NCBI GenBank assembly: GCA_046484625.1 | Contig: JAWOIO010000192.1 | Coordinates: 1,979 to 65,978, forward strand | Source: Acidimicrobiia bacterium | Lineage (GTDB): Bacteria > Actinomycetota > Acidimicrobiia > IMCC26256 > PALSA-555 | DNA length: 64,000 nucleotides | Reading direction: 5' to 3' | Shown: piece after piece, positions 43,245 through 64,000 of the stretch | How positions within the stretch are numbered: position 1 is the first letter of the stretch | Layout of the letters: each line of letters starts with the position of its first letter | The notes under the pieces: model-generated | The model's database searches: none | The model's input: the letters and a program-made list of their open reading frames with translations, nothing else | What the model was told of the DNA's origin: nothing | Program-made: the position numbers and the translations under genes

Positions 43245-44120
43245 TCACGAGAGCCGGTTGGCGGCGGTGACGACCGCGTCGAGGAGCTCCGGGGTCACGA
43301 GTGCGGCACCCTCGGGTGAGAAGTGTCCACCGTCTCTCGGGCGGAGCTCGACGTCGCCGATGACCGTCGGGCACGACCCGCCGGGACAGACGATCGACGA
43401 GAGTCGGACCACGGTCACCATGTCGGCGTGGCGCGCGGCGACCCGCGCCAGGAACCGCTCGTACTGGCGCACGTCCTGGGCGTACTGAAACCCTTCGGGG
43501 GTCAGCGCTTGGATCCAGTCGGCCGGCGGCGCATGGGCGACGACGACGACGCTCCGGACACCGGCCGACTCCAACGCATCGAGCGCACGCAACCACAGGT
43601 CGAAGGTGGCGGCCTCCCATTCCGGTGTCCCGAACGCGAGGTTCTCGTCGCCGAGGAGCAAGCCCGCGATCTCCCACGACGACAGGATCACCGCAACTTG
43701 CGCGTCGCCGAGCTCGTCATCGAGCACCCGCCGTTCGAGTGACTCGCAGTCCGTCGGTCCGATCACCGTCCCGTCAGGGGCTGTCGGTCGCCCCTCGAGG
43801 ACCCGGCAACCGATCTTGGGTGCGTTGACCCAGGAGAGGCCACGTGCCGACGCGAGCTCCGCCATCGGGTCCGCGAGGTTCGACGCGACGGAGTCGCCGG
43901 TGAACCAGTAGCGCTCGAACGGCGGGGGGAGCGGTGGGGGGAGCGTTGTCGTGGGAACGGTCACCGGCTGGAACGGGCGACGCGAGGCGCTCCGAGCGCT
44001 GTCACCGCCACCATCGACGGCCCACAGCCCCGCTCCCACCGCGAGGACGAGCAGCAGCAGGATGCCGGCGATCGCGACCGTGCGTCGGCGTCCCGCACGC
44101 CTGCGCGCGCGGCGGATCAC
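43245..44120 (-). CDS. Membrane-anchored SGNH/GDSL-type hydrolase domain protein
   Basis: N-terminal Arg-rich segment plus a TM anchor. WFTGDSVA (GDS block), C-terminal RPRDGGHF (DxxH block). Resembles the C-terminal domain of the OafA-like protein at 24474..26441. ATGA overlap with the P450. Confidence 0.7.
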   Translation of the reverse strand: MIRRARRRAGRRRTVAIAGILLLLVLAVGAGLWAVDGGGDSARSASRRPFQPVTVPTTTLPPPLPPPFERYWFTGDSVASNLADPMAELASARGLSWVNAPKIGCRVLEGRPTAPDGTVIGPTDCESLERRVLDDELGDAQVAVILSSWEIAGLLLGDENLAFGTPEWEAATFDLWLRALDALESAGVRSVVVVAHAPPADWIQALTPEGFQYAQDVRQYERFLARVAARHADMVTVVRLSSIVCPGGSCPTVIGDVELRPRDGGHFSPEGAALVTPELLDAVVTAANRLS

Positions 44121-45394
44121 CCTGTGCGTCGTGGAACGACCGGCGTGAACGTCGCGGGCATGCGCTTGATGCCGTTGATGAAGTTGGACTGGAGGTAGGC
44201 CGGCTCGCCGCTGATCTGGAGGTCGGGCAGCCGGGTGAGCAGCTCCTCGAACATGACCTTGATCTCGCGCCGGGCGAGGTGGGCGCCGAGGCAGAAGTGC
44301 GGGCCACCGCCCCCGAAGCCGAGGTGCTCGTTGGGGTCACGACGCAGGTCGAAGGCGTAGGGGTCGTCGAACACGCGCGGGTCGCGGTTTGCCGTCCCGT
44401 ACCAGATCGCGACCTTCTCGCCTTCCTTGATCGTCTGGCCGTTGATCTCGGTCTCGGCGGTCGCGCACGTCCGCCGGAAGTGGATCACCGGGGTGGACCA
44501 GCGGATGATCTCCTCGACCGCGGTGGGCGCGAGGCCCTCGAAGTCCTCGAGCCACGAGGCGCGCTGGTCGGGATGGTTCGTGAGCGCCAGCATCCCGTGG
44601 CTGATCGCGTTGCGGGTGGTCTCGTTCCCCGCGACCACGAGCAGGACGAAGAACGAGCCGAACTCCTCCGGGGTGAGGCTGTGCCCTTCGACCTCGGCCT
44701 GCGCGATCTTCGTGGTGATGTCGTCGCGCGGGTTCTTCAGCCGATCGGCCCGCAGCTCCTGGGCGTAGCGCCACAGCTCCTGGGACGCGGCGAACGCCGC
44801 TGCGATGTCGCCGCCGTAGTCGGGGTCGGCGGCGCCGAGCACGATGTTCGTGTTGTCGTAGATGTAGCGGTAGTCGGACTCGGGGATCCCCATCATGTCG
44901 CAGATGATCTGCAGTGGCAGGGCCGCCGCGACCTCGTCGACGAAGTCGCACTCGCCCTTCTCGGCGATCGCGTCGACGATGGCGCGGGCACGCTCGTGGA
45001 CGCCCGCCTCGAGCGACGCGACCTGGCTCGGGGTGAAGCCACGGTTGACGATCAGGCGGAACCGCGTGTGGCGGGGCGGGTCCATGTTGATCATCGACCC
45101 GAGGTACTCGTAGACCTCCGGGGGGAAGTCGGGGATGTTCGTGCCCTTGCCCGAGATGAACAGGTCGGGGTGGCGGCTCACGTGCTGCACGTCGGCGTGG
45201 CGCGTGACCATCCAGTACCCGGGGCCCGGCACGATCCCCGCGATCTCGGGCTCGGTGTGCCAGGAGACCGGGCGCTCCTCCTGGAGCTTGGCGAGCATCC
45301 CCGGGATGTCGTCCCGGGACCAGAGCGCCATGTTGCCGAAGTCGATGTCGTCGACCGCGAGGTCCGTGGTGGGTGTCGTGGCCATCGGCGACAC
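44117..45394 (-). CDS. Cytochrome P450 (CYP124/125/142-like architecture)
   Basis: AGNETT I-helix, EEIIRW (ExxR), FGGGGPHFCLGAHLAR heme-Cys loop. GTG start. 425 aa. Confidence 0.9.
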   Translation of the reverse strand: MSPMATTPTTDLAVDDIDFGNMALWSRDDIPGMLAKLQEERPVSWHTEPEIAGIVPGPGYWMVTRHADVQHVSRHPDLFISGKGTNIPDFPPEVYEYLGSMINMDPPRHTRFRLIVNRGFTPSQVASLEAGVHERARAIVDAIAEKGECDFVDEVAAALPLQIICDMMGIPESDYRYIYDNTNIVLGAADPDYGGDIAAAFAASQELWRYAQELRADRLKNPRDDITTKIAQAEVEGHSLTPEEFGSFFVLLVVAGNETTRNAISHGMLALTNHPDQRASWLEDFEGLAPTAVEEIIRWSTPVIHFRRTCATAETEINGQTIKEGEKVAIWYGTANRDPRVFDDPYAFDLRRDPNEHLGFGGGGPHFCLGAHLARREIKVMFEELLTRLPDLQISGEPAYLQSNFINGIKRMPATFTPVVPRRTG

Positions 45395-45435
45395 TCTAGA
45401 GATCGTCAGCGCCCCGCGGGGCGGTTCCTGCGAAC

Positions 45436-45513
45436 TTCTCGTGACCGATTCGGCCCCCGTGTGGGTTCTGGTGACCAGATCGGCCGCGTCGAGGGCCTAT
45501 CACGTCACCAGAA
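45436..45513. promoter_or_regulatory. Three copies of a 20-bp motif (two direct at 30-bp spacing, one inverted) in the P450/lhr divergent intergenic region
   Basis: TTCTCGTGACCGATTCGGCC (45436), TTCTGGTGACCAGATCGGCC (45466), and GGCCTATCACGTCACCAGAA (45494), whose reverse complement matches copy 2 at 17 of 20 positions. Copy 2 contains the palindrome TCTGGT-G-ACCAGA. Confidence 0.45.
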
Positions 45514-45559
45514 CGGGTTGGCCGTCGAAGGTGTCGTACCCAGGGGCCAGAATGGGCCG

Positions 45560-48500
45560 GTGACCTCGCTCGGGACCCGGCCCCCCGCCGCCGGCCAGCT
45601 CCGACTCGGCGACCCCCGCGCGGACCAGGATCTCGAGCCCGACGTCCCGGACGCCGGCTTCCACCCCGCCGTCGCCGAGTGGTTCCGGCGCCGCTTCCCC
45701 GACGGTCCCACCGAGCCCCAGGAGCGGGGCTGGCCCCACATCGCGGCCGGCACCGACACGCTCATCGCGGCGCCCACCGGGTCCGGGAAGACACTGGCCG
45801 GGTTCCTCGTGTGCATCGATCGCCTGTACCGGGCGCATACCCGAGGCGAGGAGGTCGCCGACGTCGCCCGGGTGGTCTACGTCTCACCGCTGAAGGCGTT
45901 GGCCGTCGACATCGCCGAGAACCTCACCGGTCCCTTGCGCGAGATCGCCGAGATCGCCGCCGAGCTCGGAGTCGACGCGCCCGACGTGCGAGTCGCGGTG
46001 CGCACCGGGGACACCCCGGCGTCGCAACGGGCCGGGATGCTGCGCCACCCCCCGAGCTTCGTCGTCACCACTCCGGAGTCGCTGTACCTGCTCGTCACGA
46101 GCGCGAAGAGCCGTGAGATGCTGCGCACCGTCGACACGGTCATCGTCGACGAGATCCACGCCGTCGCCCGCGACAAGCGCGGCGCGCACCTCGCGCTCAC
46201 CCTCGAACGGCTCGAGGCCCTCTGCGACGTGCGTCCGGTCCGCGTGGGCCTGTCCGCGACCCAGCGCCCGATCGAGACCGTGGCCCGCCTGCTCGTCGGC
46301 GCGCGCCCGCTCCCGGCGATCGTCGACGCCGGGCACCTGCGCGACCTCGACGTGGCGATCGAGCTCCCCGACGGCGAGCTCGAGGCCGTGATCTCGGCCG
46401 AGCAGATGGCCGATGTCCTCGACCGCATCGCCGCCCTCGTCGGCGAGCACCACACCACGCTCGTCTTCGTCAACACCCGCCGGATGGCCGAGCGCATCGC
46501 GCACCAGCTCGGCGAGCGGATCGGCGACGACGTCGTTGCTGCGCACCACGGCAGCCTCTCGAAGGAGCGCCGCCACCGGATCGAGGGGCGCCTCCGTGCC
46601 GGCGACCTCAAGGCCCTCGTCGCGACCGCGTCCCTCGAGCTGGGCATCGACATCGGCCCGGTGGAGCTCGTCTGCCAGATCGGCTCGCCGCGCAGCATCG
46701 CCACGTTCCTGCAGCGGGTGGGCCGGTCGAACCACAGCCGGGCCGGCACCCCGAAGGGCCGCCTCTACCCCCTCACGCGCGACGAGCTCGTCGAGTGCAC
46801 TGCCCTGCTCGCGGCCGTCCACGCGGGACGTCTCGACGCGATCGTGCCGTCGCGCGAACCGCTCGACATCGCGGTCCAGCACGTCGTCGCCGAGGCGGCC
46901 GCCCGCGAGTGGCGCACCGACGACCTCTTCGCACTCGTCCGCCGGGCCGCGCCCTACACCGAGCTCACGCGAGAGCGCTTCGACGAGATCATCGACCTGG
47001 CTTCGAACGGCATCCAGACCGGCCGGGGCCGCCGCGGTGCGTACGTCTTCCACGACGCGGTGAACGGCGAGGTCCGGGGGCGCAAGAGCGCCCGCATCGC
47101 GGCCACCACCTCCGGGGGCGCGATCCCCGAGACCGGCGACTACCGGGTCGTCATGGAGCCCGACGACACGTTCATCGGCACCGTGAACGAGGACTGGGCC
47201 GTCGAGTCGATGGCCGGCGACATCTTCCTCCTCGGCACCCACTCCTGGCAGATCCGACGCGTCGAGGCCGGCGTGGTCCGGGTGCGCGACGCCGGCACGG
47301 CCGCGCCCACGATCCCGTTCTGGATGGGCGAGGCACCCGCCCGCACCGCCGAGCTCTCGGCCGAGGTCTCCGAGCTGCGTCGCCGGGTCGACGAGATGCT
47401 CGACGCGAACGACCCGGACGGCGCCCGCGCCTGGCTCCGCGAGTCGGCAGGCGTCAGCGCCGACGCCGCCGCGATGATCGTCGACTACCTCGCGGTCTCC
47501 CGTGCCGCGCTCGGCGCCATGCCCACCCAGGACCGCATCGTCCTCGAGCGGTTCTTCGACGAGACCGGTGGGATGCAGCTCGTGATCCACTCCCCCTACG
47601 GAGGACGGATCAACCGTGCCCTGGGGCTCGCGCTGCGCAAGAAGTTCTGTCGCACCTTCAACTTCGAGCTCCAGGCCGCGGCGAGCGACGACGCGATCGT
47701 GCTCTCGCTCGGCCCCCACCACAGCTTCCCGCTGGAGGAAGTCCCTCGCTACGTCACCAGCGCCGGGGTCGAGGAGACGCTGCGCCAGGCGATCCTCGAC
47801 TCGCCGATGTTCCTCTCACGCTGGCGTTGGAACCTCAACCGCTCGCTCGTGGTGCTCCGGTTCCGCAACGGTCGACGGAACCCGCCGCCGATCCAGCGGA
47901 TGGAGTCGGACGATCTCATGGCCGCGGTGTTCCCGCAAGCGGCGGCCTGCCAGGAGAACATCACCGGCCCGATCGAGATCCCCGATCACCTCCTGGTGCG
48001 CCAGACCATCGCCGACACCCTCCACGAGGCGCTCGACGTCGACGGCGTCCGCGATCTGCTCGTGGGCCTCGAGTCCGGGGCCGTCGCGACGCACTGCGTC
48101 GACACGACCGAGCCATCGGTGCTCGCCCACGAGATCCTCACCGCTCGGCCGTACGCGTTCCTCGACGACGAGGAGCTCCAGAACCGCCGGACCAACGCGG
48201 TCACGCTGCGTCGCGGGCTCTCGGTCGATCTCGCCTCGATCGGGGTGCTCGACCCCGAGGCCGTCGACCGGGTGCACGCCGAGATCACGCCCGAGCCCGC
48301 GACCGCCGACGACCTCCACGACCTCGTGGCGTCCCTCGTCTGTACGCCGGCGCGACCCGAGTGGGCCGCGCTGTGGTCCGAGCTCGTCGAGCGCGGCCGG
48401 GGCCAGGTGCTCGACGTCGACCGCGCCCGCCGATGGTGCACCACCGAGCAGGTCGACGCGGCCCGAGGGGCGCTCGCCGGAGACGACGACGCGCTCATCC

Positions 48501-49816
48501 GTCTCACGCGCGGCCACCTCGAGATCGCGGGCATCACCACCGTCGAGGAGCTGAGTGACCAGCTCGCGATCGCGCCGACGCGGCTCGCGATCGCGCTCGC
48601 GGTGCTCGAGCAGGAGGGAACCGCCCTCCAGGGCCGGTACCGACCCGGCGCCGAAGGACCCGAGTGGGTGGCCCGCCGGCTGCTCGCCCGGATGCACTCG
48701 TACTCGCGCGGCGCGCGGCGCGAGCGGATCGAGCCCGCAACCGCCCAGGACCTCATGCGCTTCCTGCTCCGGTGGCAGCACATCGCGCCCGGAACCCAGC
48801 TCGACGGCACGGCCGGGCTCGTCTCCGTGATCGAGCAGCTCCAGGGCCACGAGGCGCCGGCCGTCGCGTGGGAACCGGAGCTGCTCACCGCCCGGATGCG
48901 CCGGTACGACCCGTCGTGGCTCGACCGGCTCTGCCACGAGGGCCAGGTGGCATGGCTGCGCCTCACCCCCCGCGCCCGGGACGACGCCGACGGCCCGTCG
49001 GGTGCCCCGTCGAAGGCGACCCCCATCACCGTCGTCTTCCGCGACGACCTGCCGTGGTTGCTCGAGGCCGCCCGCGGCGACGCACCGCCCGCCGAGCCCA
49101 CCGTCGGCGCCACCAGCGAGGTCATCGAGACGTTGCGCGCCAGGGGCGCGTGCTTCGCGGGTGATCTCGCCGACGCGACGCGCCGACTCCCCGAGGACAT
49201 CGAGCGCGCGCTCTGGGACGGCGTCGCACGCGGGCTCGTCACCAGCGACGGGTTCGCCTCGATCCGGGCGCGCATGGCCGGCCGACGACGCGCCGACGAC
49301 GCTCGACGGCTGTCGAGGCTCGTCCGGGGCGGCCGCGGCCCGGGTGTGGCGCCGGGGCGTTGGTCGCTCGTCGACGCCCAGAGCCACGACCGGCCGAGCC
49401 GCGACCGGCCGAGCCACGACCGAGAGGAGCTCGCCGAGGCCGTCGCCGAGCAGCTCCTGAACCGCTGGGGCGTCGTGTTCCGCGACCTCGCCGTGCGTGA
49501 CTCGCTGCGGGTCCCGTGGCGCGAGGTGCAGTGGGCGCTGCGGCGGCTCGAGGACCGGGGCCTGGTGCGCGGGGGCCGGTTCGCGACCGGGTTCACCGGC
49601 GAGCAGTACGCGCTCCCGGCGGCCGTCGAGCAGCTCACGCACGTCCGCAAGCAGCCCCGTACCGGGGAGCGGGTCACCGTGAACGCGGCCGACCCGCTCA
49701 ACCTCGTGGGGCCCATCGTGCCCGGACCGACCGTGCCGTCGGTCCGCACGCGGACCGTCACCTACGTCGACGGCGCCGCCACCGACACCCTGGAGGCCCT
49801 GCCCGGCAAAGGGTGA
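45560..49816 (+). CDS. lhr: Lhr-type large ATP-dependent DNA helicase
   Basis: GTG start within ORF 43934..49816. APTGSGKT, VDEIH, SATQ, DEAD/DEAH-box and helicase C motifs, long Lhr-type C-terminal region. 1418 aa. Confidence 0.9.
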   Translation: MTSLGTRPPAAGQLRLGDPRADQDLEPDVPDAGFHPAVAEWFRRRFPDGPTEPQERGWPHIAAGTDTLIAAPTGSGKTLAGFLVCIDRLYRAHTRGEEVADVARVVYVSPLKALAVDIAENLTGPLREIAEIAAELGVDAPDVRVAVRTGDTPASQRAGMLRHPPSFVVTTPESLYLLVTSAKSREMLRTVDTVIVDEIHAVARDKRGAHLALTLERLEALCDVRPVRVGLSATQRPIETVARLLVGARPLPAIVDAGHLRDLDVAIELPDGELEAVISAEQMADVLDRIAALVGEHHTTLVFVNTRRMAERIAHQLGERIGDDVVAAHHGSLSKERRHRIEGRLRAGDLKALVATASLELGIDIGPVELVCQIGSPRSIATFLQRVGRSNHSRAGTPKGRLYPLTRDELVECTALLAAVHAGRLDAIVPSREPLDIAVQHVVAEAAAREWRTDDLFALVRRAAPYTELTRERFDEIIDLASNGIQTGRGRRGAYVFHDAVNGEVRGRKSARIAATTSGGAIPETGDYRVVMEPDDTFIGTVNEDWAVESMAGDIFLLGTHSWQIRRVEAGVVRVRDAGTAAPTIPFWMGEAPARTAELSAEVSELRRRVDEMLDANDPDGARAWLRESAGVSADAAAMIVDYLAVSRAALGAMPTQDRIVLERFFDETGGMQLVIHSPYGGRINRALGLALRKKFCRTFNFELQAAASDDAIVLSLGPHHSFPLEEVPRYVTSAGVEETLRQAILDSPMFLSRWRWNLNRSLVVLRFRNGRRNPPPIQRMESDDLMAAVFPQAAACQENITGPIEIPDHLLVRQTIADTLHEALDVDGVRDLLVGLESGAVATHCVDTTEPSVLAHEILTARPYAFLDDEELQNRRTNAVTLRRGLSVDLASIGVLDPEAVDRVHAEITPEPATADDLHDLVASLVCTPARPEWAALWSELVERGRGQVLDVDRARRWCTTEQVDAARGALAGDDDALIRLTRGHLEIAGITTVEELSDQLAIAPTRLAIALAVLEQEGTALQGRYRPGAEGPEWVARRLLARMHSYSRGARRERIEPATAQDLMRFLLRWQHIAPGTQLDGTAGLVSVIEQLQGHEAPAVAWEPELLTARMRRYDPSWLDRLCHEGQVAWLRLTPRARDDADGPSGAPSKATPITVVFRDDLPWLLEAARGDAPPAEPTVGATSEVIETLRARGACFAGDLADATRRLPEDIERALWDGVARGLVTSDGFASIRARMAGRRRADDARRLSRLVRGGRGPGVAPGRWSLVDAQSHDRPSRDRPSHDREELAEAVAEQLLNRWGVVFRDLAVRDSLRVPWREVQWALRRLEDRGLVRGGRFATGFTGEQYALPAAVEQLTHVRKQPRTGERVTVNAADPLNLVGPIVPGPTVPSVRTRTVTYVDGAATDTLEALPGKG
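49381..49421 (+). repeat. In-frame 15-bp tandem repeat (about 2.7 copies) encoding SHDRP-SRDRP-SHDR in the lhr C-terminal region
   Basis: GAGCCACGACCGGCC / GAGCCGCGACCGGCC / GAGCCACGACC, read directly. Confidence 0.9.
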
Positions 49817-51009: not shown

Positions 51010-52380
51010 CTACAAGTTGCCGCGACGCCACGGACCCCAGATCGCGTACGTCCGGCTCCTCGGCTCGTCGCCGGCGAGCTGCTCCGCGAGCGTGTTGGCG
51101 AACAGGTAGTCGCCGTCGGGGCTCCAGCACGCGCCGGCCCACTCCTTGGCGTCGACCAGGTTCAACGCGAAGTCGAAGACGACGCCGTCGCGGGTCAGTC
51201 CCTTGAGGTACTGGTCCGACATCGCCCGGCCGGGCAGCACGCGCGCCGTGTCCTCGCAGAGGACGGTGCCGCCTCGAGGCGAGACGACGATGTTGTCCGG
51301 GAACGACAGGATCGTCGGGTCGGGCGACTCGAACACCAGCGTCAGCGTCCCGCCCGCGTCGCCCTTCGGCCGGTAGGACCACACCTGACCGTGGAGGGCG
51401 TCGCCACCGTCGGTCGCGGTGAAGAAGACCCGACCGCGGTCGAACACCGTGCCCTCGGTGCGGCGGAAGATCGCCCCACCCCCGGCGATTCCCTCCTCGT
51501 ACACGGCCTTGCCCCCGAGGGGCGGGTCGGGCTCGGTGATGTCGACCCACTTCACCGGGAGCGCCGTGCCGACGGTCTGCCCGGTGCGAGTGTCGTAGCC
51601 GTCGGTCCCCCGCACCTTGAGCATCTGGAGGGTTCCCGCGGCGAGCTTCCCCTTGCGAGCCGGGACGAAGCGATAGAAGCCGGAGTCGCCCGCGTCCTCG
51701 GTCATGTAGACGATGCCGGTGCGCGGGTCGACGCACGCGGCCTCGTGGGTGAACCGCCCGAGCGCGGTGAGCGGCTCGGGATCGACCGGCCTGTTCGCGG
51801 CCGCAGGGACCTCGAACACGTACCCGTGGTTCGCGCCGAAGTCCGGGGTCCCCGCGGTGGTCTCTTCACAGCTGAGCCAGCTCTTCCATGGCGTGATCCC
51901 GCCCGCGCAGTTGGTGTGCGTGCCGCTCAAGCTGACGAAGTCGCGCACCACGCTCGGGATCCCGTCGCGATCGAACGCGATCTCGAGGGTGGTCGTCCTA
52001 CCGGGCGACAACGGGTCGTACGCCTTCGCGGCGTCGAGCGGTGGCGCCACCCCGGCACCGTCTCGCACCTCGTGGTTGCGGACGAGCCGGACGCGTCCCT
52101 TCTTCCCGGCGAAGCACCCCATCCCGTCGTGGGCGTTGGGGGTGATGTTCCCGTCGGTCATCGTGGAGCCCGCCACCCCGAAGACCGCGTACTCGAACCC
52201 CTTCGGGAGCGCGAGCCACTCGATCCCGCCGTCGACCCCGTCGGCCACCGACGTCGGGAGCGCCGGGGCGAGCGGGCCGTACTTCGACACTGCGGGTTGT
52301 GGTCGGACCGACGCACCCGCGAGGCTGCGCCCCAGCAGGCTCCCGAGGGAACCGGAGAGCCCGGCCCCGGCCGCCATCAT
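51010..52380 (-). CDS. phoX: PhoX-like / DUF839 beta-propeller phosphatase; true start probably upstream (to about 52422)
   Basis: NAHDGMGCF, NCAGGITPWKSWLSCEE, GYVFEV, RFTHEA, PDNI motifs of the PhoX family. In-frame upstream codons encode REIDRRRFLTGSA, a Tat motif, but contain no ATG/GTG/TTG. Confidence 0.8.
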   Translation of the reverse strand: MMAAGAGLSGSLGSLLGRSLAGASVRPQPAVSKYGPLAPALPTSVADGVDGGIEWLALPKGFEYAVFGVAGSTMTDGNITPNAHDGMGCFAGKKGRVRLVRNHEVRDGAGVAPPLDAAKAYDPLSPGRTTTLEIAFDRDGIPSVVRDFVSLSGTHTNCAGGITPWKSWLSCEETTAGTPDFGANHGYVFEVPAAANRPVDPEPLTALGRFTHEAACVDPRTGIVYMTEDAGDSGFYRFVPARKGKLAAGTLQMLKVRGTDGYDTRTGQTVGTALPVKWVDITEPDPPLGGKAVYEEGIAGGGAIFRRTEGTVFDRGRVFFTATDGGDALHGQVWSYRPKGDAGGTLTLVFESPDPTILSFPDNIVVSPRGGTVLCEDTARVLPGRAMSDQYLKGLTRDGVVFDFALNLVDAKEWAGACWSPDGDYLFANTLAEQLAGDEPRSRTYAIWGPWRRGNL

Positions 52381-52618: not shown

Positions 52619-53545
52619 ATGCCCTACACCACGGCCAGCATCCCCGACCTGCACGGCCGTGTCGCGGTCGTCACTGGCGCCAACGGAGGGTTGGGGCTGT
52701 CGACGGCAAAGGCCTTCGCCGGCGCCGGCGCCCATGTCGTGATGGCCGCCCGCGACCAGGCCAAGGCCGCCTCGGCCCGGGACGAGATCCTCACCGCCGT
52801 ACCCACCGCCTCGCTGGAAGTGGTCGAGCTCGATCTGGCGTCGCTCGCATCGGTCGAGCAGGGCGCGCGTAGCGTCCTGTCGTCGCACGAGGAGATCCAC
52901 GTGCTCGTGAACAACGCCGGCCTCATGGCGATGCCCGAACGCGCGACAGTCGACGGGTTCGAGATGCAGCTCGGCGTCAACCATCTCGGGCACTGGGCGC
53001 TGACCGCGCGGCTCATGCCCGCGCTGCTGCGGGCCGACGCCGCCCGCGTCGTCACGGTCACGAGCACCGCGCGACATCTGGGACGTGCCCTGCACGCCGA
53101 CAACCCCCATCTGCACGGACGGTACAAGCCGTGGCGGGCCTACGGGCAGTCGAAGCTCGCCAACTGGCACTTCGCGCTCGGTCTCCAACGGGAGTTCGAT
53201 CGGGTGGGGATCGCGGCCACGAGCCTCGTGGCCCACCCCGGCCTGACGAACACCGACCTCCAGGCCCGCACGGTGCGGGAGGGCGGCGGAGGCGCGGCCG
53301 CGGGGTTCTTCCACCGATTGACCGGCATGGCCGGCATGACCCCCGACCGCGGCGCCCTGCCCCAGATCCGAGCCGCGACCGACCCGTTGGCGAAGGGCGG
53401 CCAGCTCTACGCCCCGCGTTTCGTCAACCGCGGTGCCGCCGTCCGTCGTCCGGTGCTGCGCCGCCTCGGCCTGTCCCAGGCCATCGCGACCTTGTGGGCG
53501 GTCTCCGAACGAGAGACCGGGCTCGCCCTCGACATCTACGCGTGA
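52619..53545 (+). CDS. Short-chain dehydrogenase/reductase (retinol-dehydrogenase-like classical SDR)
   Basis: VAVVTGANGGLG, NNAG, Y.QSKLAN catalytic motif. 308 aa. Confidence 0.85.
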   Translation: MPYTTASIPDLHGRVAVVTGANGGLGLSTAKAFAGAGAHVVMAARDQAKAASARDEILTAVPTASLEVVELDLASLASVEQGARSVLSSHEEIHVLVNNAGLMAMPERATVDGFEMQLGVNHLGHWALTARLMPALLRADAARVVTVTSTARHLGRALHADNPHLHGRYKPWRAYGQSKLANWHFALGLQREFDRVGIAATSLVAHPGLTNTDLQARTVREGGGGAAAGFFHRLTGMAGMTPDRGALPQIRAATDPLAKGGQLYAPRFVNRGAAVRRPVLRRLGLSQAIATLWAVSERETGLALDIYA

Positions 53546-54289: not shown

Positions 54290-56014
54290 TCAGCGAACCG
54301 ACGGGAGCGGCTCGTAGTCGGGTGCCACCTCGGCCGCGGGCCGCTCGTCGTAGAACGAGACCGCACCCTTCCGGACGAACGCCTTCGTCGGGCGCTTGGG
54401 CAGGTCGCCGGGGAGGTAGCGCTTGCCCCCGTCCACGTACTGGTACATCCCGGCTCCCTCGTCGCCGTTCTCGTCGACGCCCCGCTCCTTGGGGTCCCAC
54501 CAGATCTCGGTGACATCGTCGACCCCGTTCGTGTCCGGCTCGAGGTCCTTGGGCCAGATCTTCTTCTTGCCGTACCCGAGGGAGACCGTGGTGATGCCGC
54601 CGCGCGCCGTCGGTTCACTCTCGAGCAGTGTGTTGTAGAAGCGCTTCGGGGTCAGGTCGGGTCCCACGCCCTGCACGACCGAGTAGAAGACACCCGGCCA
54701 TGGCTGGATGAGCGGCACCTGCTCGTCCGCCGGAGGCCGCTCGCCCACGAACCAGTTGTAGAGGTGGTAGCCACCGCCGATCGTCGGGTCGGCCTTCGCG
54801 GCCGACTCGCTCATCCCGAACGCGTTGGCCCACTGCGCCTGGTCGTAGGTGCGCGCGAACGCGTTCGTGTCGACGAGCGCGACGCTCGAGATGATCCACT
54901 CCGGGAAGTACTCCTGGGCAGTGGCCTCCTGGGTGAAGTCCTTCGGTGCGATCGGGTCGGTCGCCATGATCACGCTGGTGATGCCGTTGACCTTCAGGCG
55001 GCCGATGATCGTCGCGGCCTGCTCCTGGATCGTGGCAGGGTCGAGCGTGTACGGGATGACGTCGGCGAGCTCCACGCCGTACTCGTCCTTCAGCTCGGCC
55101 TCGAAGCGCTCGGCGGTCTCCGTCGAGCTCTCGGAGGTCTCGATGTAGATCATCGCGAACTTGCGTTCGTCCTTCGCGAAGTCGGGTGAATGCGCGGCCT
55201 TGCGTCCGGCGAGCTGCTTGCCGATGTACTCGGCGAGCTGGATGCGGCTCTGCACCGCGCCCTTCCCGATGCCCAGCACATAGGGCGCGCGCTCCTTCGC
55301 GAACGCGTTGGTCACACCCCCGAGCGAGAGCCAGGGGATCCCGCGGGCCGCGAGCTCCTCGCCGAACTGCTCGCCCGCGAGGGTCGGATTGCCCCAGACC
55401 ATGAACGGCTTGATGTCCTCGGCGATCTGCGCGGCCTGCGCGCGCGCCTGGACGGCATCTGCGGAGCCACTCGAGTTCTCGACGACCACGAGCTCCACCG
55501 ACCGGCCGTAGGTCTCGTAGTAGGTCTCGTACATCGCCAGGAGCCCTTCCATCGTGGCGACCTGGTCGGCGTTCGTGTCGTCGTAGTTCAGCGGGCCCCG
55601 GATGTAGCGGAGGATGGCATCGTCGTTCTTGTCGAGGAACCACACGATCTTGATCGAGTCCTCGGTGACGCCCGTCGCGGTCTCCCCGCCGTTGTCGCCC
55701 GTGAACGGCGCGTGGCACTCGGCCGCGTAGAAGTAGGGAATGGCGACGGTCCCCCGCTCGGTGTCGCACCGGTCGCCCCAGTCGACGTCGACGCCGAGGT
55801 CCTCGGCGGTCGAGAACGACACGGCGTCCTCGCCCGGCACGGGATCACGGGCAACGCGCTGCCCCGCGGAGCCGGCCGTCGCCCCCGCGACCACCAACGC
55901 GCACGCGAGGAGGATCGCGATGATCGATGGCGACCGCCGCCGCGAGCGCCGGGTCCGGCCTCGACCCCGACCTGGCCCACCGCCGACGGTGTTCGCTGCA
56001 CCCGCGTCATTCAT
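54290..56014 (-). CDS. ABC transporter substrate-binding protein (Liv/amide-type PBP1), unusually long
   Basis: Arg-rich N-terminus plus a TM/signal segment (SIIAILLACALVVAGATAG), periplasmic-binding-protein fold pattern, about 570 aa. The start ATG 56014 overlaps the ATPase gene end. Confidence 0.75.
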   Translation of the reverse strand: MNDAGAANTVGGGPGRGRGRTRRSRRRSPSIIAILLACALVVAGATAGSAGQRVARDPVPGEDAVSFSTAEDLGVDVDWGDRCDTERGTVAIPYFYAAECHAPFTGDNGGETATGVTEDSIKIVWFLDKNDDAILRYIRGPLNYDDTNADQVATMEGLLAMYETYYETYGRSVELVVVENSSGSADAVQARAQAAQIAEDIKPFMVWGNPTLAGEQFGEELAARGIPWLSLGGVTNAFAKERAPYVLGIGKGAVQSRIQLAEYIGKQLAGRKAAHSPDFAKDERKFAMIYIETSESSTETAERFEAELKDEYGVELADVIPYTLDPATIQEQAATIIGRLKVNGITSVIMATDPIAPKDFTQEATAQEYFPEWIISSVALVDTNAFARTYDQAQWANAFGMSESAAKADPTIGGGYHLYNWFVGERPPADEQVPLIQPWPGVFYSVVQGVGPDLTPKRFYNTLLESEPTARGGITTVSLGYGKKKIWPKDLEPDTNGVDDVTEIWWDPKERGVDENGDEGAGMYQYVDGGKRYLPGDLPKRPTKAFVRKGAVSFYDERPAAEVAPDYEPLPSVR

Positions 56015-58979
56015 GCGATGACCCCCCTCGGTCCGAGGTGAGCATGCCACCTCGCGAGGCCCCGAGGTAGGACGCGATGACCTCGGGATGCTCGAGGACC
56101 TGCCGGGGTACGCCCGTGGCGACCACTCTGCCCTGGTCCATTGCGACCAGCCGGTCGGCGATGCCCGTGACGAGGGCCATGTCGTGCTCGACGATCACCA
56201 GGCTGGCACCGAGATCGTCCCGCACCCGCCGGAGGAGCGGTGCCAGCGCCTCCGTCTCGCGCTGCGCGATGCCGGTGGAGGGCTCGTCGAGCAGCACGAC
56301 GCTCGGGCCGTGCGCACAGACGCACGCCAGGTCGACGACCCGGCGGGATCCGGTCGACAGCTCCCGGAGGAACTTGGTCCGGAAGGCGTCGAGGCCGAAC
56401 ACGTCGATGATCTCCCCGGCCCGCAGCCCGATCTGGCGCTCGGAGACGGTGACGTTCGGGAGGTGCAGCGCAGCCGCGAGGACGCTGCGCACGCGCACCG
56501 ACCGTTCGAGCGCGACCGCGACGACCTCCTCGACGGTGAGGGCCGGGAACAGGCGGGCATCCTGGAACGACCGCCCGAGCCCGCGCCGGGCCCGCTGCGG
56601 CGCCGTCAGGCGCGTCAGGTCGTCGTCGCCGAGCATCACTCGGCCACCGTCGGCCGACGTGAACCCGGAGATCAGGTCCAGGAGGGTCGTCTTGCCCGCA
56701 CCGTTCGGGCCGATGATCCCGACGATCTCGCGGGGCGCGACCTCGATCGCGACGTCGTCGACGGCGACGATTCCCCCGAACCGACGGGTGAGCCCGACCG
56801 TTCGCAGCATGGGTCCGTCTGCACTCCCGCGCGATGCGACGGCGGCCACCTCGGCGGTCGTCGACCGCTGCTGCTCGGTCGCGTCACGGTTCAGCCGGAG
56901 CTCCGCGGCGGCCGCGCCGTCGAGGAAGACCGAACGCAGGACGTCGGGACGGTCGAGGAGGTCCTCCGTGCGGCCGTGGAACCGGATCTCACCCTTCTCC
57001 ATGAAGTACGCGGTCTCGGCCACCGCCAGCGCGATGTTCACCGACTGCTCGACGAGGATGATCGTGACACCGGACGCGTTCAGCTCGCGGATCACGTCGA
57101 GCAGCTGGTCGACGATCAGCGGCGCGAGCCCGAGCGACAGCTCGTCGATGCAGAGGAGTCGGGGTCTGCTCAAGAGCGCCATCCCGAGCGCGAGCATCTG
57201 CTGCTGGCCGCCCGAGAGGTTTGCCGCCGGCTCGGACTCACGGTCGCGCAGCTGCGGGAACAGCGCGAACACGCGCTCGACCGAGGAGGCGCTCGCATCC
57301 TCGTGACGAGTCATCCAGCGGGCGACCTCGAGGTTCTCCCCGACGGTGAGCGACGGGAAGATCCCGGCCCCGCCGGGCATCATCGTGACGCCCTTCGCCG
57401 CGACCTCGTCGGCCGGCGCGTAGGTGAGGTCGCGGCCGTCGAAGATGACCGCGCCGCGGTCCGGGTCGAGGAGGCCCGAGATGGTGCGCAGCAGCGTCGA
57501 CTTCCCGGCACCGTTCGTCCCGAGCAGCGCGACGATCGCGCCCTCCTCGACCTCCAGGTCGACGTCGAACAGCACCTGCACGTCGCCGTAGCTCACCTGA
57601 AGGCCGCGCACGAGCAGGATCTTCGACCGTCCGGCCTCGCGCTCCAGGCGTTCCTCCGAGAGCGCCATGCTCGTGCGCCAGACCTGCTGGATGTCGGCGG
57701 AGATGACCCAGCCCGCGCTCGAGATGATCAGCCCGCCCACGACCATGACGGGGACCATCACGAGCATCGCCGGGCGGAGGCCCCACTCGTCGCCGACCAC
57801 ACCGATCACGGGCAGGATCACGAGCCCCGGGATCACCCAGAGCGACGCGATCGAGAACCCCATCGCGCGCGCGCGCGCCGGGATCGCCAACGACAGGACC
57901 GCGAGGATCCCCGGGAGGAGGATCGCCAGGACGGCCGAGATGAGCCCGTTCACGAGCACGGCGAGGTAGACATTCGGGGCGAGCGCGAACAGGACGACGA
58001 GCCCACCCGCCGCGAACGACACGCCTGCCTGGAACTTGAGCACGAGACCGGGATCACGCTGCAGCAGGCGCGTCGCGATGCGTGCGCCGATCACCAGCCC
58101 GACGAGCTGCATCGGCTCCACGCCCGCAGCGACGAACCCGCGTGCTCGCTCGTCGAGGTCGTACACGTCCTCGTAGAGCAGGGCCGCGAGGGAGACGAAG
58201 CCGACGAACGAGACCGCGAGGAACGGCATCGCGTACCAGATGCGTCGCAGCGACTCGATCTTCCACATCATCCGCCAAGCCTCGGCGTAGGACGCGGGCT
58301 CCTCTTCGGTCGCGATGACGGCTTCCGACGCGCCCATCGCACGACGTTCCTGGTTCCCCCGCACGGGCTCGCGCATGCGCATGCCGAGGAAGATCAGGAC
58401 GACGGTCGGGATCGCGAAGACGATGAACGGCCAACGCCACCCGAACGAGAACGCCAGCAACCCGGCGATCAACGGTCCGAGGAACTGCCCCACCGAGTTC
58501 GCGGCGCGGTGGAACGAGTAGATCCGTGGGCGAATCGCCGGCTCGTAGTAGTCGGCGAGCAGCGAGTTGTGGACCGGGTCGTTCACTGCCCGTCCCACCC
58601 CTGAGCCGATCCGGAACACCACGAGCATCCACACCGCGGTTGAGAGCCCGGTCGCGAACGAGAAGATCGCCCAGAGGGTCGCCCCCGCGAGCGCAAGGTG
58701 CACGCGGTTGAGCCGGTCCGCGTAGTGCGCGATCGGCACCTGGAGCGCGAGGGAACCCACACCGACCACCGCGATCAACGTGAGAATTCCGCGGAGGTCG
58801 AGCCCGAACGCATCTCGGATCTCCGGCAGCAGGATCCCGAACGCCGTGCGGTCGAGCTCATCGACAGCGTTCAGGCCGAAGAGGATGAGCAACGGGTACA
58901 CCGGGCCCGTTCCCGTCAGCTCGTCGAGCCAGCGGATCGGGTGCCGCAACCCGTCGAGACCGCGTCGGAAGGTGTTCAT
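56007..58979 (-). CDS. Tri-domain fusion: MFS-like 12-TM domain + LivF-like ATPase + LivG-like ATPase
   Basis: 990 aa from ATG 58979 (ATGA overlap with the permease stop). MFS motif-A-like HYADRLNRVHL. NBD1 GTNGAGKST / LSGGQQQ / LLCIDELSLGLAP. NBD2 GPNGAGKTT / LSTGSRR / VVLLDEPSTGIA. Confidence 0.85.
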   Translation of the reverse strand: MNTFRRGLDGLRHPIRWLDELTGTGPVYPLLILFGLNAVDELDRTAFGILLPEIRDAFGLDLRGILTLIAVVGVGSLALQVPIAHYADRLNRVHLALAGATLWAIFSFATGLSTAVWMLVVFRIGSGVGRAVNDPVHNSLLADYYEPAIRPRIYSFHRAANSVGQFLGPLIAGLLAFSFGWRWPFIVFAIPTVVLIFLGMRMREPVRGNQERRAMGASEAVIATEEEPASYAEAWRMMWKIESLRRIWYAMPFLAVSFVGFVSLAALLYEDVYDLDERARGFVAAGVEPMQLVGLVIGARIATRLLQRDPGLVLKFQAGVSFAAGGLVVLFALAPNVYLAVLVNGLISAVLAILLPGILAVLSLAIPARARAMGFSIASLWVIPGLVILPVIGVVGDEWGLRPAMLVMVPVMVVGGLIISSAGWVISADIQQVWRTSMALSEERLEREAGRSKILLVRGLQVSYGDVQVLFDVDLEVEEGAIVALLGTNGAGKSTLLRTISGLLDPDRGAVIFDGRDLTYAPADEVAAKGVTMMPGGAGIFPSLTVGENLEVARWMTRHEDASASSVERVFALFPQLRDRESEPAANLSGGQQQMLALGMALLSRPRLLCIDELSLGLAPLIVDQLLDVIRELNASGVTIILVEQSVNIALAVAETAYFMEKGEIRFHGRTEDLLDRPDVLRSVFLDGAAAAELRLNRDATEQQRSTTAEVAAVASRGSADGPMLRTVGLTRRFGGIVAVDDVAIEVAPREIVGIIGPNGAGKTTLLDLISGFTSADGGRVMLGDDDLTRLTAPQRARRGLGRSFQDARLFPALTVEEVVAVALERSVRVRSVLAAALHLPNVTVSERQIGLRAGEIIDVFGLDAFRTKFLRELSTGSRRVVDLACVCAHGPSVVLLDEPSTGIAQRETEALAPLLRRVRDDLGASLVIVEHDMALVTGIADRLVAMDQGRVVATGVPRQVLEHPEVIASYLGASRGGMLTSDRGGSSHE

Positions 58980-61133: not shown

Positions 61134-62570
61134 ATGCGATCGGGACCCCCACCTTCTCGGGCCGGACAGGGTTCCCGGGCCGGACGGGCGGCGATCGTCG
61201 TCGTCACGCTGCTCGCGATCGGGATCCCTGCTTCGGGGCTTCCCGTCGGCGCAGCCGCGAGGGACCAGCCCGACGTTCGCTTCGCGCAGTACGACGGGTA
61301 CGCATCGCCCGGCACACCGGACGAGCTCAACAAGGTGGGCACGATCGAGATAGGCCCCAAGAACGCGAAGAACGTCCTCGTGTTCGTTCCGGGCACCTCG
61401 GCGAGCGCGGCGTACTACGTCCCGATCGCCCGGGACCTGGTCGAGGAGAACCCCGGCTGGCAGGTCTGGGCAGTGGAGCGCCGCGAGAACCTGCTCGAGG
61501 ACCACTCCGTGCTCGATGAGGTGAAGGCCGGGAAGGCCACACCGGAGGAGCTGTTCGAGTATTACCTGGGGTTCGTCACCGACCCGAGCATCACTGACCA
61601 CTACGAGTTCCTCGACGACGCGGACGTCGCGTACGCCAGGGACTGGGGCATGCGGGTGGCGGTCGAGGACCTCCGCCGTGTCGTCACCGCGGCGAAGACG
61701 CGGAGCGGCAAGGTCGTGATGGGTGGCCACTCGCTGGGCGCTTCGATCCTCACCGCGTACGCCACCTGGGACTTCGACGGCCGACCGGGTGCCGACGACC
61801 TGTCCGGCCTCGTCTTCATCGACGGTGGCAGCGGGCCGACGCCGATCTCGCCCGCAGAGGCCACCGCGTCCCTCGACGACCTCGAGGCCGGCACGCCCTG
61901 GCTCACGTTCGGCGGCATCGCGGCGCCTTACGCCGGCCTGTTCAACGCCGTGGGCTCGACGACCGTGCACGCGCGCCCTGACGAGCCGTCGACGCTCCAG
62001 GACTGGGTCGCGCTCCCCGCGAACCTCAAGGCTCCGGTGGCCGCGACAAGCCTTGCCTCGTACGGGTTCGCGCTCGACGTGGCGACCTCACCGCCCGCGC
62101 TCGCCGCAGCACACGCCCACCTCGGGGAGCTCGACACCACTACCGAGCCGGCGGGATGGGATCGCGCCGGCGCGCTCACGCCGGTCCCGCGCTACGCCAA
62201 CATGTTCTCGGGAACTGGCCTCCCCGGCCACGACGGCACCGCGTGGTATCACCCGCTACGCCTGACGATCGACAGCGGCGCCGTCGCCGCCGGCAATGCA
62301 AACCCCGCGCAGCAGATCCTCGACCTCGACGCGACCCACGGCTCCGACCTGTCGAAGAAGCTCCTCGTCTACGCGTTCGGCGCGTCACTCGGAGGCCAGC
62401 GCGTGCTCGACGCCGCACAGAACCTCGCAGATCAGTCGTCCATCCCGGCGAGCCGGCTGACGCTCGTAGACCGCATCGACACGTACGCTCACAACGACTT
62501 CGCCGGAGCAAGCCCCGAGAACGACTTCGTGGCGACGTTGACGCCCTTCCTCCGCGCGATCACGAAGTAG
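61134..62570 (+). CDS. Secreted alpha/beta hydrolase (lipase/esterase-like)
   Basis: N-terminal signal/TM (AAIVVVTLLAIGIPASG), GGHSLGA nucleophile elbow. 478 aa. Confidence 0.7.
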   Translation: MRSGPPPSRAGQGSRAGRAAIVVVTLLAIGIPASGLPVGAAARDQPDVRFAQYDGYASPGTPDELNKVGTIEIGPKNAKNVLVFVPGTSASAAYYVPIARDLVEENPGWQVWAVERRENLLEDHSVLDEVKAGKATPEELFEYYLGFVTDPSITDHYEFLDDADVAYARDWGMRVAVEDLRRVVTAAKTRSGKVVMGGHSLGASILTAYATWDFDGRPGADDLSGLVFIDGGSGPTPISPAEATASLDDLEAGTPWLTFGGIAAPYAGLFNAVGSTTVHARPDEPSTLQDWVALPANLKAPVAATSLASYGFALDVATSPPALAAAHAHLGELDTTTEPAGWDRAGALTPVPRYANMFSGTGLPGHDGTAWYHPLRLTIDSGAVAAGNANPAQQILDLDATHGSDLSKKLLVYAFGASLGGQRVLDAAQNLADQSSIPASRLTLVDRIDTYAHNDFAGASPENDFVATLTPFLRAITK

Positions 62571-62761: not shown

Positions 62762-63628
62762 CTAGCAGCGATAGAGACGCTCGGCGTTGCCGGCGAACAG
62801 CTTGTCGCGCGCCTCGCTCGTGAGATCCGCGGTCAGGCGATCGTAGGTGGAGTACAGCTCGTCGAAGGTCCCGTGCATGGCATCGACCGGGAAGTTGCTG
62901 GCGAACATGCACCGGTCGATGCCGAAGACGTCGAGGCAGTGCTCGATCCACGGACGGAACACCTCGGTGTCCATCGAGCGGAGCGGCATCGCGAGGCCGG
63001 AGAGCTTGCAATGGACGTTGTCGCCCAGCGATGCGAGCGCCGAGATCCCGGTCCTCCAGAGGTCGAGCTCGTCACGCGAGTCGCCCCTGGGCCAGCCGGC
63101 GTGCTCGACGACGACGGTGAGGTCGCCCCAGTCGGCCAGCGCGGCCGCCACGGCCTCCAGCTCGTCGGGGTGGTGCATCAGCTCGAAGATCAGCCCGCGC
63201 TCCTCGAGAGCACGCAGTACCTCGACCCTCGGCACGACGCCCGTCGCGGCACCCATCGGTCGGACGCCGCGGAAGCGGGGCGATTCCATCTGCGCATCGA
63301 GCAGGCGCACGGTGTCGGCCACCGGATCACCCGGCACGAAGCCTCCGATGATCGCATCGGGGTGCCCCGTCGCGCGCGCCAGATCGTCGAGCTCGCGGGT
63401 CTCGTCCCCCGAGTACGGTGCCGTCGCCGCGGCGACGTGGACGAACTTGACGACGTTCCAGCCCTCGGATTCCGCGAAGTAGGTGGACTGGTCGAAGCGG
63501 CGACTCATGCCCGAGATGTCGCCCATGTCGAGCTCGCGTTGGCCCGCGAGGTACGGGTACCAGTCGGCGCGGGCCGGGTCCCACAGGTGGATGTGGGCGT
63601 CGACGATGCGTTCGATCGGTGCGGACAT
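62762..63628 (-). CDS. Amidohydrolase-2 family metal-dependent hydrolase
   Basis: Internal ATG (MSAPIERIVDAHIHLWDP...). HxH metal motif, VVEHAGWP, FASNFPVD. Confidence 0.8.
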   Translation of the reverse strand: MSAPIERIVDAHIHLWDPARADWYPYLAGQRELDMGDISGMSRRFDQSTYFAESEGWNVVKFVHVAAATAPYSGDETRELDDLARATGHPDAIIGGFVPGDPVADTVRLLDAQMESPRFRGVRPMGAATGVVPRVEVLRALEERGLIFELMHHPDELEAVAAALADWGDLTVVVEHAGWPRGDSRDELDLWRTGISALASLGDNVHCKLSGLAMPLRSMDTEVFRPWIEHCLDVFGIDRCMFASNFPVDAMHGTFDELYSTYDRLTADLTSEARDKLFAGNAERLYRC

Positions 63629-63636
63629 CGCTGCTC

Positions 63637-64000
63637 CTACGGTTGCGGGCGCGGCATGCCGGTGACCATGGCGCGGAGGGCTCCATCCAGCCAGCCGGGC
63701 ACCTCCGGGCCGCCGAAGGAGATCGTCCCGCCGGGGTTCGGGTGGCTTCGCAGACCGAGCCACTCCGAGTCGACCGCGAGCTCCGCGCCCGACAGCGCGC
63801 TGGTGTCGGTGCCACGCACCAAGTAGGCGGCGAGCTCGGCAGCCGGTTGTCGCGCCGACGCGTGCGGGGCCTCGACGCTGATCGAGAACGCGTCGACCCG
63901 ATCCGCCGTCGCCGCGTGGGCGGCCCGGGCAAGCTGGCCCGTTGCCTGGGCCCGGCTCCGACCTCCCGCCGTCGTGGCATCGCCGATGGTGACGAGTCGG
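63637..64000 (-). CDS. 3' part of an unidentified CDS running off the window (possibly SDR-like C-terminus)
   Basis: The frame is open to the window edge. AELAAYLVRGTDTSALSGAELAVDSEW loosely resembles the SDR C-terminal ...S....TG..L.VDGG segment. Confidence 0.35.
   Translation of the reverse strand, partial: RLVTIGDATTAGGRSRAQATGQLARAAHAATADRVDAFSISVEAPHASARQPAAELAAYLVRGTDTSALSGAELAVDSEWLGLRSHPNPGGTISFGGPEVPGWLDGALRAMVTGMPRPQP

Follow-up and report, generated by a model that had tools for sequence, protein, structure and literature searches.

A minus-strand operon of three genes was analysed in a 64,000-nt stretch of DNA from an Acidimicrobiia bacterium (contig JAWOIO010000192.1; the whole stretch is referred to here as the window). 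The central gene encodes a fusion protein of 990 amino acids (aa), in which a major facilitator superfamily (MFS) domain with 12 transmembrane (TM) helices is followed by two nucleotide-binding domains (NBDs) of the ATP-binding cassette (ABC) type, the first LivF-like (NBD1) and the second LivG-like (NBD2). The upstream gene encodes a permease of 676 aa and the downstream gene a substrate-binding protein of 574 aa. The permease gene carries two BPD_transp_2 stretches and is therefore a fused LivH-LivM (LivHM); its product supplies the two transmembrane domains (TMDs) of the importer. LivHM, both NBDs, and the binding protein make up a complete HAAT-family (Liv-type) ABC importer, to which one extra 12-TM MFS domain is added. 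The fusion is real and old, and it represents a conserved transporter architecture that is apparently undescribed.

The open reading frame (ORF) of the fusion runs from an ATG at 58979 to a TGA at 56007-56009; a plus-strand reading of 56007-58979 was ruled out, its translation being full of stops. An initial annotation, made from the letters of the window, had given these coordinates and a single 990-aa frame without internal stops, and both proved correct once assigned to the minus strand. At the upstream junction, the start of the fusion gene and the stop of the permease gene overlap as ATGA; at the downstream junction, the stop of the fusion gene and the ATG of the binding-protein gene overlap as ATGAATGA. 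Owing to these overlaps at both ends, the three genes are translationally coupled. The ATGA coupling to a fused LivH-LivM permease had likewise been recognised in the initial annotation, as had the consequence that the transporter already has its canonical TMDs; the overlap and the two BPD_transp_2 stretches agree with this. The window has a G+C content of 71%, and all three operon genes show the pattern of G+C at third codon positions (GC3) of real genes. A scan of the operon for promoters and terminators gave nothing above chance. Features and coordinates are collated in the table.

Table. Features of the operon and its surroundings in the window, with positions, strand, and basis of assignment.
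Feature	Position	Strand	Basis
Fused LivH-LivM permease, 676 aa	58976..61006	-	BPD_transp_2 x2, 181 bits; LivH/UrtB-like N-half, LivM/UrtC-like C-half (NCBIfam)
Fusion ORF, MFS + LivF-like NBD + LivG-like NBD, 990 aa	56007..58979	-	Open frame, Pfam and NCBIfam
MFS domain, residues 25-425, 12 TM	57705..58907	-	MFS_1, AF2, HnSpns alignment
Tether, residues 426-452	57624..57704	-	AF2 helix 426-448, then strand E453
NBD1, residues 453-690, LivF/UrtE-like	56910..57623	-	1JI0 alignment, NCBIfam
Inter-NBD linker, residues 691-722, disordered	56814..56909	-	Low pLDDT, low identity, high dN/dS
NBD2, residues 723-975, LivG-like	56055..56813	-	LivG NF008449 over 723-974; BCA_ABC_TP_C 951-974
Substrate-binding protein, 574 aa, LivJ type I fold	54290..56014	-	AF2 and Foldseek
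478-aa protein, divergent from the operon	61134..62570	+	Signal-like N-terminus, GHSLG motif
PhoX alkaline phosphatase	51010..52380	-	
SDR oxidoreductase	52619..53545	+	
Amidohydro_2 protein	62762..63763	-	
1960-aa ORF	43934..49816	+	GC3 0.86
425-aa ORF	44117..45394	-	GC3 0.96

The structure of the fusion was modelled with AlphaFold 2 (AF2; pLDDT 83.3, pTM 0.67). The MFS_1 profile of Pfam was matched in two stretches (142.8 bits, cut-off 33.4 bits), and AF2 placed 12 long TM helices between residues 28 and 424 (pLDDT ~90) with a loop at residues 200-241, in agreement with the hydropathy profile; the C-terminus of the domain runs into the cytoplasmic NBDs. The assignment of residues 1 to about 440 as a complete MFS domain, made in the initial annotation, was borne out by these results. 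The motif-A-like segment HYADRLNRVHL named there was located at residues 85-95 and contains the motif A residues D88, R89, and R92; the further MFS motifs are R123 (motif B), DYY (residues 143-145), and REPVRG (residues 203-208). The segment GQFLGPLIAGLL (residues 164-175) resembles, by eye, the antiporter motif C (GxxxGPxxGG, TM5), and within it G168 and P169 are the same in all close relatives. The best sequence match of the MFS domain in the PDB was the bacterial Spinster homologue HnSpns (6E8J, E = 2.9e-12), followed by EmrB, SPNS1, EfpA, and QacA.

Conservation was assessed in an alignment of the protein with 20 divergent fusions (30-64% identity in the MFS domain), that is, in 21 sequences. 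D88, R89, R92, R123, D143, P205, R207, and G208 were unchanged in all 21 sequences, and the same was found for R280, G281, P367, R369, R371, and D429, while Y144 and Y145 of the DYY motif were kept in at least 80% of them. Among 64 close relatives, D88, R89, R92, and R123 were invariant as well. The mean identity to the residue of the protein studied here amounted to 0.41 in the MFS domain, 0.57 in NBD1, and 0.54 in NBD2, while the linker between the NBDs reached 0.11. The ratio of nonsynonymous to synonymous substitution rates (dN/dS), determined from the single pair of the window and the orthologous locus L001 (dS ~0.65), since synonymous sites are saturated in distant orthologues, was 0.036 for the MFS domain, 0.019 for the tether helix, 0.092 for NBD1, 0.138 for NBD2, and 0.64 for the inter-NBD linker. 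By dN/dS, no part of the fusion protein is more constrained than the MFS domain and the tether, a result that speaks against an anchor in decay or one that is hydrophobic and nothing more.

In the AF2 model, the helix of residues 426-448 continues TM12 into the first strand of NBD1 (pLDDT 85-89). The tether residues D429, I430, Q432, V433, and W434 do not vary among close relatives, and a D-I motif after TM12 is common to the tether and to free MFS relatives. The inter-NBD linker was modelled with pLDDT <50 over residues 684-720.

The ATPase part gave two ABC_tran stretches in Pfam (192.4 bits in total) and a BCA_ABC_TP_C match at residues 951-974 (25.8 bits, cut-off 25.5 bits), so that MFS_1, ABC_tran, and BCA_ABC_TP_C, the profiles named in the initial annotation, were all matched by the fusion, its N-terminus included. 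With NCBIfam, residues 456-688 were assigned to LivF/UrtE and residues 723-974 to LivG/UrtD, in the order that the initial annotation had proposed. The LivF and LivG scores lie under the NCBIfam equivalog cut-offs, which indicates a member of the HAAT family rather than an orthologue. A urea transporter (UrtABCDE) was rejected on the scores for UrtD (295, below 304), UrtB (66, below 250), and UrtC (84, below 296); UrtE scored 303 against a cut-off of 286, a value that is a sum over both NBDs.

The catalytic motifs were read from the two NBDs separately. NBD1 carries the Walker A motif GTNGAGKST, the signature LSGGQ, the Walker B motif IDE613, and Gln645 as switch residue; Gln at this position is also found in the LivF homologue 1JI0, to which NBD1 aligns with E = 5e-59. 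In the Q-loop of NBD1, MMPGGAGIF stands against LVPEGRRIF in 1JI0, G536 replacing Glu. The PGG Q-loop is present in 78 of the 82 fusion-type NBD1 domains, and SFQD is kept in every NBD2; the baseline of this comparison is 1JI0 together with general knowledge of LivF, as no LivF genes of Acidimicrobiia lacking the MFS domain were available among the loci fetched to serve as a Q-loop control. NBD2 carries the Walker A motif GPNGAGKTT, Q806, DE899 (LDE899), and H932, and its signature is LSTGS where LptB has LSGGE. The initial annotation had ascribed a Walker A motif, a signature, and a Walker B motif to each NBD; this holds for both Walker motifs, with the amendment that the signature of NBD2 is LSTGS and not LSGGQ and that NBD1 is devoid of the Q-loop Glu/Gln. 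The consensus ATP site is made up of the P-loop of NBD2, Q806, E899, and H932 together with LSGGQ of NBD1, and the deviant site of the P-loop of NBD1 and LSTGS of NBD2, with Gln for the switch His and without the Q-loop Glu/Gln. The gamma-phosphate is sensed by the Q-loop residue, which also touches the coupling helix of the TMD. That this residue is lost specifically in the NBD bearing the MFS domain is, of all hints of co-adaptation, the most suggestive.

The 574-aa binding protein was assigned to type I (LivJ fold, Peripla_BP_6) by fold only, from its predicted model (pLDDT 89.5, pTM 0.86). It gave no match in Pfam, NCBIfam, or PDB sequence searches, and no UrtA match; PF13458 was matched by some of its homologues, most of which are named 'hypothetical protein' in the databases. 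The top Foldseek matches were LivJ 4gnr and other LivJ-type proteins (E ~1e-13, 9-15% identity), and proteins of the nearest folds have amino acids, aromatic acids, or fatty acids as ligands. The N-terminal 54 residues form a signal or anchor region; the protein further has an extra beta-rich N-terminal region, two invariant cysteines (C83 and C100), and a C-terminal beta extension of ~100 aa. Two or three binding-protein genes stand in tandem in 11 of 80 inspected loci.

These 80 loci were fetched from the 295 species genomes with relatives of the fusion that were found when one genome of each GTDB species was scanned; almost all belong to the Acidimicrobiia (Microthrixaceae, Ilumatobacter, Aquihabitans, and many metagenome-assembled genomes (MAGs)). 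The loci are independent and stem from many studies, contigs of >1 Mb included, and wherever the contig reaches, the order LivHM, fusion, large binding protein was found in all 80. The same operon is present in the cultured isolate Ilumatobacter nonamiensis (BAOL01000012), with proteins of 706, 989, and 623 aa. At least 120 clusters of proteins with the domains of the fusion were collected (62-89% identity, 965-1041 aa), and fused forms extend down to ~30-35% identity in the MFS domain. The protein itself is present in NCBI in identical form (100%, P0001) as 'MAG: MFS transporter [Acidimicrobiia bacterium]'.

It can hardly be credited that a frameshift, a misassembly, or a gene-calling error joined an MFS gene to livF and livG. 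Assembly frameshifts do occur in some database relatives, of which P0122, P0123, and P0127 end in out-of-frame Arg/Pro-rich tails. The frame in the window is continuous, however, the fusion is shared by 80 independent loci and by an isolate genome, and the junction helix is conserved, with purifying selection across the junction. The frameshift that the initial annotation had considered as a refutation was excluded on these grounds, among them the search for the architecture in other genomes that it had suggested.

Long out-of-frame tails rich in Arg, Pro, and Ser, ascribed to assembly frameshifts, were seen in P0131 as well as in the three entries named above, and one such relative ends in GRASCRERV, which we take to be a recurrent chimeric or contaminant tail. 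Frameshifted entries of this kind inflate the apparent number of architectures with an MFS domain and one NBD.

Variant architectures were collected with the MFS domain as sole query in a search of 1.84 billion representative proteins, which gave 377 representatives at E <= 1e-30. The best 150 of these 377 were classified as MFS-LivF-LivG (18), MFS-LivF (12), free MFS (32), partial or frameshifted (16), and fragments (72). At locus L085, genes for a binding protein, LivHM, an MFS-LivF protein, and a separate LivG were found. At locus L086 (6477-10987; also at L087), a 712-aa MFS-LivF protein is followed by a LivH-LivM-LivG triple fusion (BPD_transp_2 x2, ABC_tran from residue 711). As LivG is separate in the former case and joined to the permease in the latter, the MFS-LivF junction is the constant element. 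Free MFS genes were also located inside liv operons: L089 (3827-10286) comprises two binding-protein genes, LivHM, a free MFS protein of 460 aa (P0163), and the MFS-LivF-LivG fusion, every junction being a 4-nt overlap, and at L091 (1-1934) the start of the free MFS gene P0153 lies 4 nt ahead of the end of another gene, which has a LivG-like 3' end (53% identical to fusion residues 799-973), on a contig too short to show more of the operon. From these two loci it follows that the association of MFS and Liv proteins is independent of the covalent bond, and the lineage of L089 uses two MFS modules. Several free MFS relatives outside liv operons have as neighbours a MarR gene with an ABC exporter gene, a gene for a patatin, one for a BTAD regulator, or one for a glyoxalase; efflux pumps often adjoin MarR or ABC-exporter genes. 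The MFS family thus also exists as ordinary stand-alone transporters.

Recurrent neighbours of the 80 loci were determined by ORF clustering: hexapeptide transferase (21 loci) and TetR (15 loci), and further a luciferase-like oxidoreductase, PAC2, DUF4097, an alpha/beta hydrolase, an AMP-binding ligase, and a beta-lactamase-family esterase. A theme of lipids or fatty acids was considered from the Spinster-like MFS domain, the fatty-acid binding protein 4n03 among the fold matches, and the acyl-CoA genes near L088, and was set aside as too weak to be claimed.

As a tentative proposal, which we hold to be quite possible though short of probable and which is drawn from sequence and predicted structure, the protein may form part of a hybrid primary-plus-secondary complex, in which the MFS domain, linked to the importer, would be active as a transporter. 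The domain, intact and Spinster/DHA-like, is joined to the N-terminus of the NBD of the deviant site by the helix that continues TM12. It would act as a working rocker-switch secondary transporter and not as an inert anchor, and would be held next to the membrane domain of LivHM with a stoichiometry of 1:1; a tether helix of ~23 residues, together with an NBD1 that must dock under LivHM, would require this position. The invariance of motifs A and B, D143, and the REPxRG residues, together with the low dN/dS, points to an MFS domain that is functional and not decaying. The domain might handle the importer's own compound or one linked to it in metabolism, with export or antiport as the most probable direction, since its closest relatives of solved structure (HnSpns, EmrB, Spns1, EfpA, and QacA) export their substrates or transport lipids and since one segment resembles part of motif C. 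The MFS cycle would be tied physically, and probably functionally, to the ATPase cycle of the importer.

Several points weigh against this proposal. The transport direction is taken from family resemblance only. By sequence, only the N-terminal half of the MFS domain (residues 28-180) aligns to solved structures, with EmrB and EfpA scoring near HnSpns, and for this reason membership in the Spinster family is likely, not proven. Among the recurrent neighbours of the 80 loci, no coherent substrate pathway was found. A structural or regulatory role, too, would be compatible with strong constraint on a membrane domain. The neighbour-joining tree of the MFS domains has short internal branches and interleaved architectures, and does not separate one fusion origin from many.

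The initial annotation had left the function open between a co-transporter, a substrate sensor, and just a membrane tether. That the MFS fold is a passive anchor or scaffold like the TMD0 of ABCC proteins, which only holds the LivF-LivG ATPase or stabilises the LivHM assembly and transports nothing, would agree with the full set of TMDs already present in the importer, with the general tendency of the lineage to fuse subunits (LivH-LivM, LivF-LivG, and LivHM-LivG), and with a substrate that is not assignable. We consider it unlikely, as the motifs of the conformational switch (A and B) are invariant, the dN/dS of the MFS domain is below that of both NBDs, the close free homologues are stand-alone transporters, and the second, free MFS paralogue at L089 would be pointless as an anchor; this evidence argues against the plain membrane tether of the initial annotation. 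A short, helical, and highly constrained tether that joins TM12 directly to NBD1, itself part of a deviant and probably regulatory ATP site, would also suit a sensor or regulator ('transceptor'), in which the MFS domain binds a cytoplasmic or external substrate and gates NBD dimerisation through the rigid tether (trans-inhibition or activation). Regulatory domains are attached to the NBDs of several ABC importers (MalK, MetN, and ModC), and MFS-like sensors exist (UhpC). Features specific to a sensor were not identified in the fusion, all motifs of a full transport cycle are kept, and the free relatives look like ordinary transporters, so that a sensor is judged unlikely.

Closure of the NBDs might instead pull TM12 through the tether, so that ATP powers or gates the MFS domain in a covalent analogue of ArsA-ArsB. 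The order MFS-NBD corresponds to that of the domains in ABC half-transporters, the unit that does not vary is MFS-LivF, whereas LivG can sit on the permease, and NBD1 is without the Q-loop residue by which an NBD is normally coupled to a TMD. MFS proteins, however, have no coupling helix of the ABC type, and the constant presence of LivHM and the binding protein implies canonical docking of both NBDs; an ATP-driven MFS domain is therefore regarded as decidedly improbable. Rather improbable, in the form considered here, is an MFS domain that is driven mechanically or allosterically by the ABC ATPase, one ATPase pair running both import through LivHM and export or flipping through the MFS domain; closure of the NBD dimer upon ATP would be passed on from the LivF domain, with its degenerate Q-loop, by way of the conserved TM12 helix. 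In a related reading of that kind, the unusually large binding proteins, and the second MFS paralogue of some operons, would serve the MFS domain, which would then be a binding-protein-dependent MFS transporter.

Among known systems, the HAAT family (TC 3.A.1.4; LivJ/K-LivHMGF and UrtABCDE) has in common with the operon the pair of LivF- and LivG-like NBDs, the BCA_ABC_TP_C tail, the BPD_transp_2 permeases, the LivJ-fold binding protein, and the operon organisation. The operon differs in that the permeases and the NBDs are fused, a whole MFS domain precedes LivF, Gly takes the place of the Q-loop Glu, the binding protein exceeds the usual length by ~200 aa, and the scores for LivF, LivG, UrtB, and UrtC are below the equivalog cut-offs. 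Of the Spinster MFS proteins (TC 2.A.1.49; Hyphomonas HnSpns and human SPNS1/2), to which the DHA exporters EmrB, EfpA, and QacA are related, HnSpns and SPNS1 share with the MFS domain DRT in TM1, ADRxNRV (motif A), FRxG (motif B), DYYxP after TM4, and REPxRG after TM6; the known Spinster proteins are stand-alone, whereas the domain is here covalently joined to ABC ATPases. The ABC half is a divergent member of the HAAT family, and the MFS half is a member of the MFS superfamily that is probably Spinster-like.

ArsA-ArsB combines a carrier fold with an ATPase, but ArsA is not an ABC protein, ArsB is not an MFS protein, and their association is non-covalent. The TMD0 of ABCC/SUR and TAP is an extra N-terminal membrane domain, but a bundle of 4-5 helices without a transporter fold; here, a complete and constrained 12-TM transporter stands on the NBD subunit of an importer. 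With Foldseek against the PDB, the ATPase part matched only chains with tandem NBDs, M. tuberculosis DppD and OppD (8WDB and 8J5Q), and none among the best matches listed joins an MFS domain with an NBD in one chain. DppD and OppD have both NBDs in one chain, but belong to the peptide/Opp family and carry no membrane domain on it. The sensor-kinase-MFS family represents another kind of MFS fusion (PMC3924187). In none of ArsAB, TMD0, the MalK/MetN/ModC domains, and the sensor-kinase-MFS family is an MFS domain joined to ABC NBDs.

A fusion of MFS and ABC ATPase domains was not described in the full-text literature searched, TCDB and InterPro lying outside that search; this is consistent with the initial annotation, which had not recognised the architecture as a described one, and the family is abundant in databases under automatic names. 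These names ('MFS transporter' and 'branched-chain amino acid transport ATP-binding protein'), or a dual COG label in IMG, are all by which it is visible, and they hide a distinct family that deserves a name of its own.

No transporter superfamilies are larger than those of the ABC proteins (primary transporters) and the MFS proteins (secondary transporters), and the mechanisms of the two are normally regarded as separate. That a complete MFS domain and the ATPase of a complete ABC importer are covalently united, under conservation and strong selection, implies an advantage in physical coupling. The loss of the Q-loop residue in the attached NBD and the class-wide occurrence of the fusion point to mechanistic cross-talk beyond co-expression, the outcome of which might be a new form of transporter regulation, a device that couples import to export, or control of an MFS protein by ATP. 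If the domain were indeed driven by the ATPase, a secondary-transporter fold would act as a primary, ATP-gated transporter. The system would be categorically new only if control of the MFS domain by ATP, or its use of the binding protein, were demonstrated. It is experimentally accessible, as Ilumatobacter nonamiensis is cultured, and would give the first functional handle on bacterial Spinster-like proteins.

The 478-aa protein encoded divergently from the operon has a signal-like N-terminus and a nucleophile-elbow motif (GHSLG, of the type GxSxG); it gave no match in Pfam or NCBIfam, and may be a secreted alpha/beta-hydrolase or lipase. Of the flanking genes, that of the SDR oxidoreductase also adjoins the orthologous locus L001 (89%), and an Amidohydro_2 gene is also found near the MFS-LivF variant at L086. 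Farther from the operon, the 1960-aa ORF on the plus strand, coding-like in its GC3, overlaps the 425-aa ORF, of still higher GC3, on the opposite strand.

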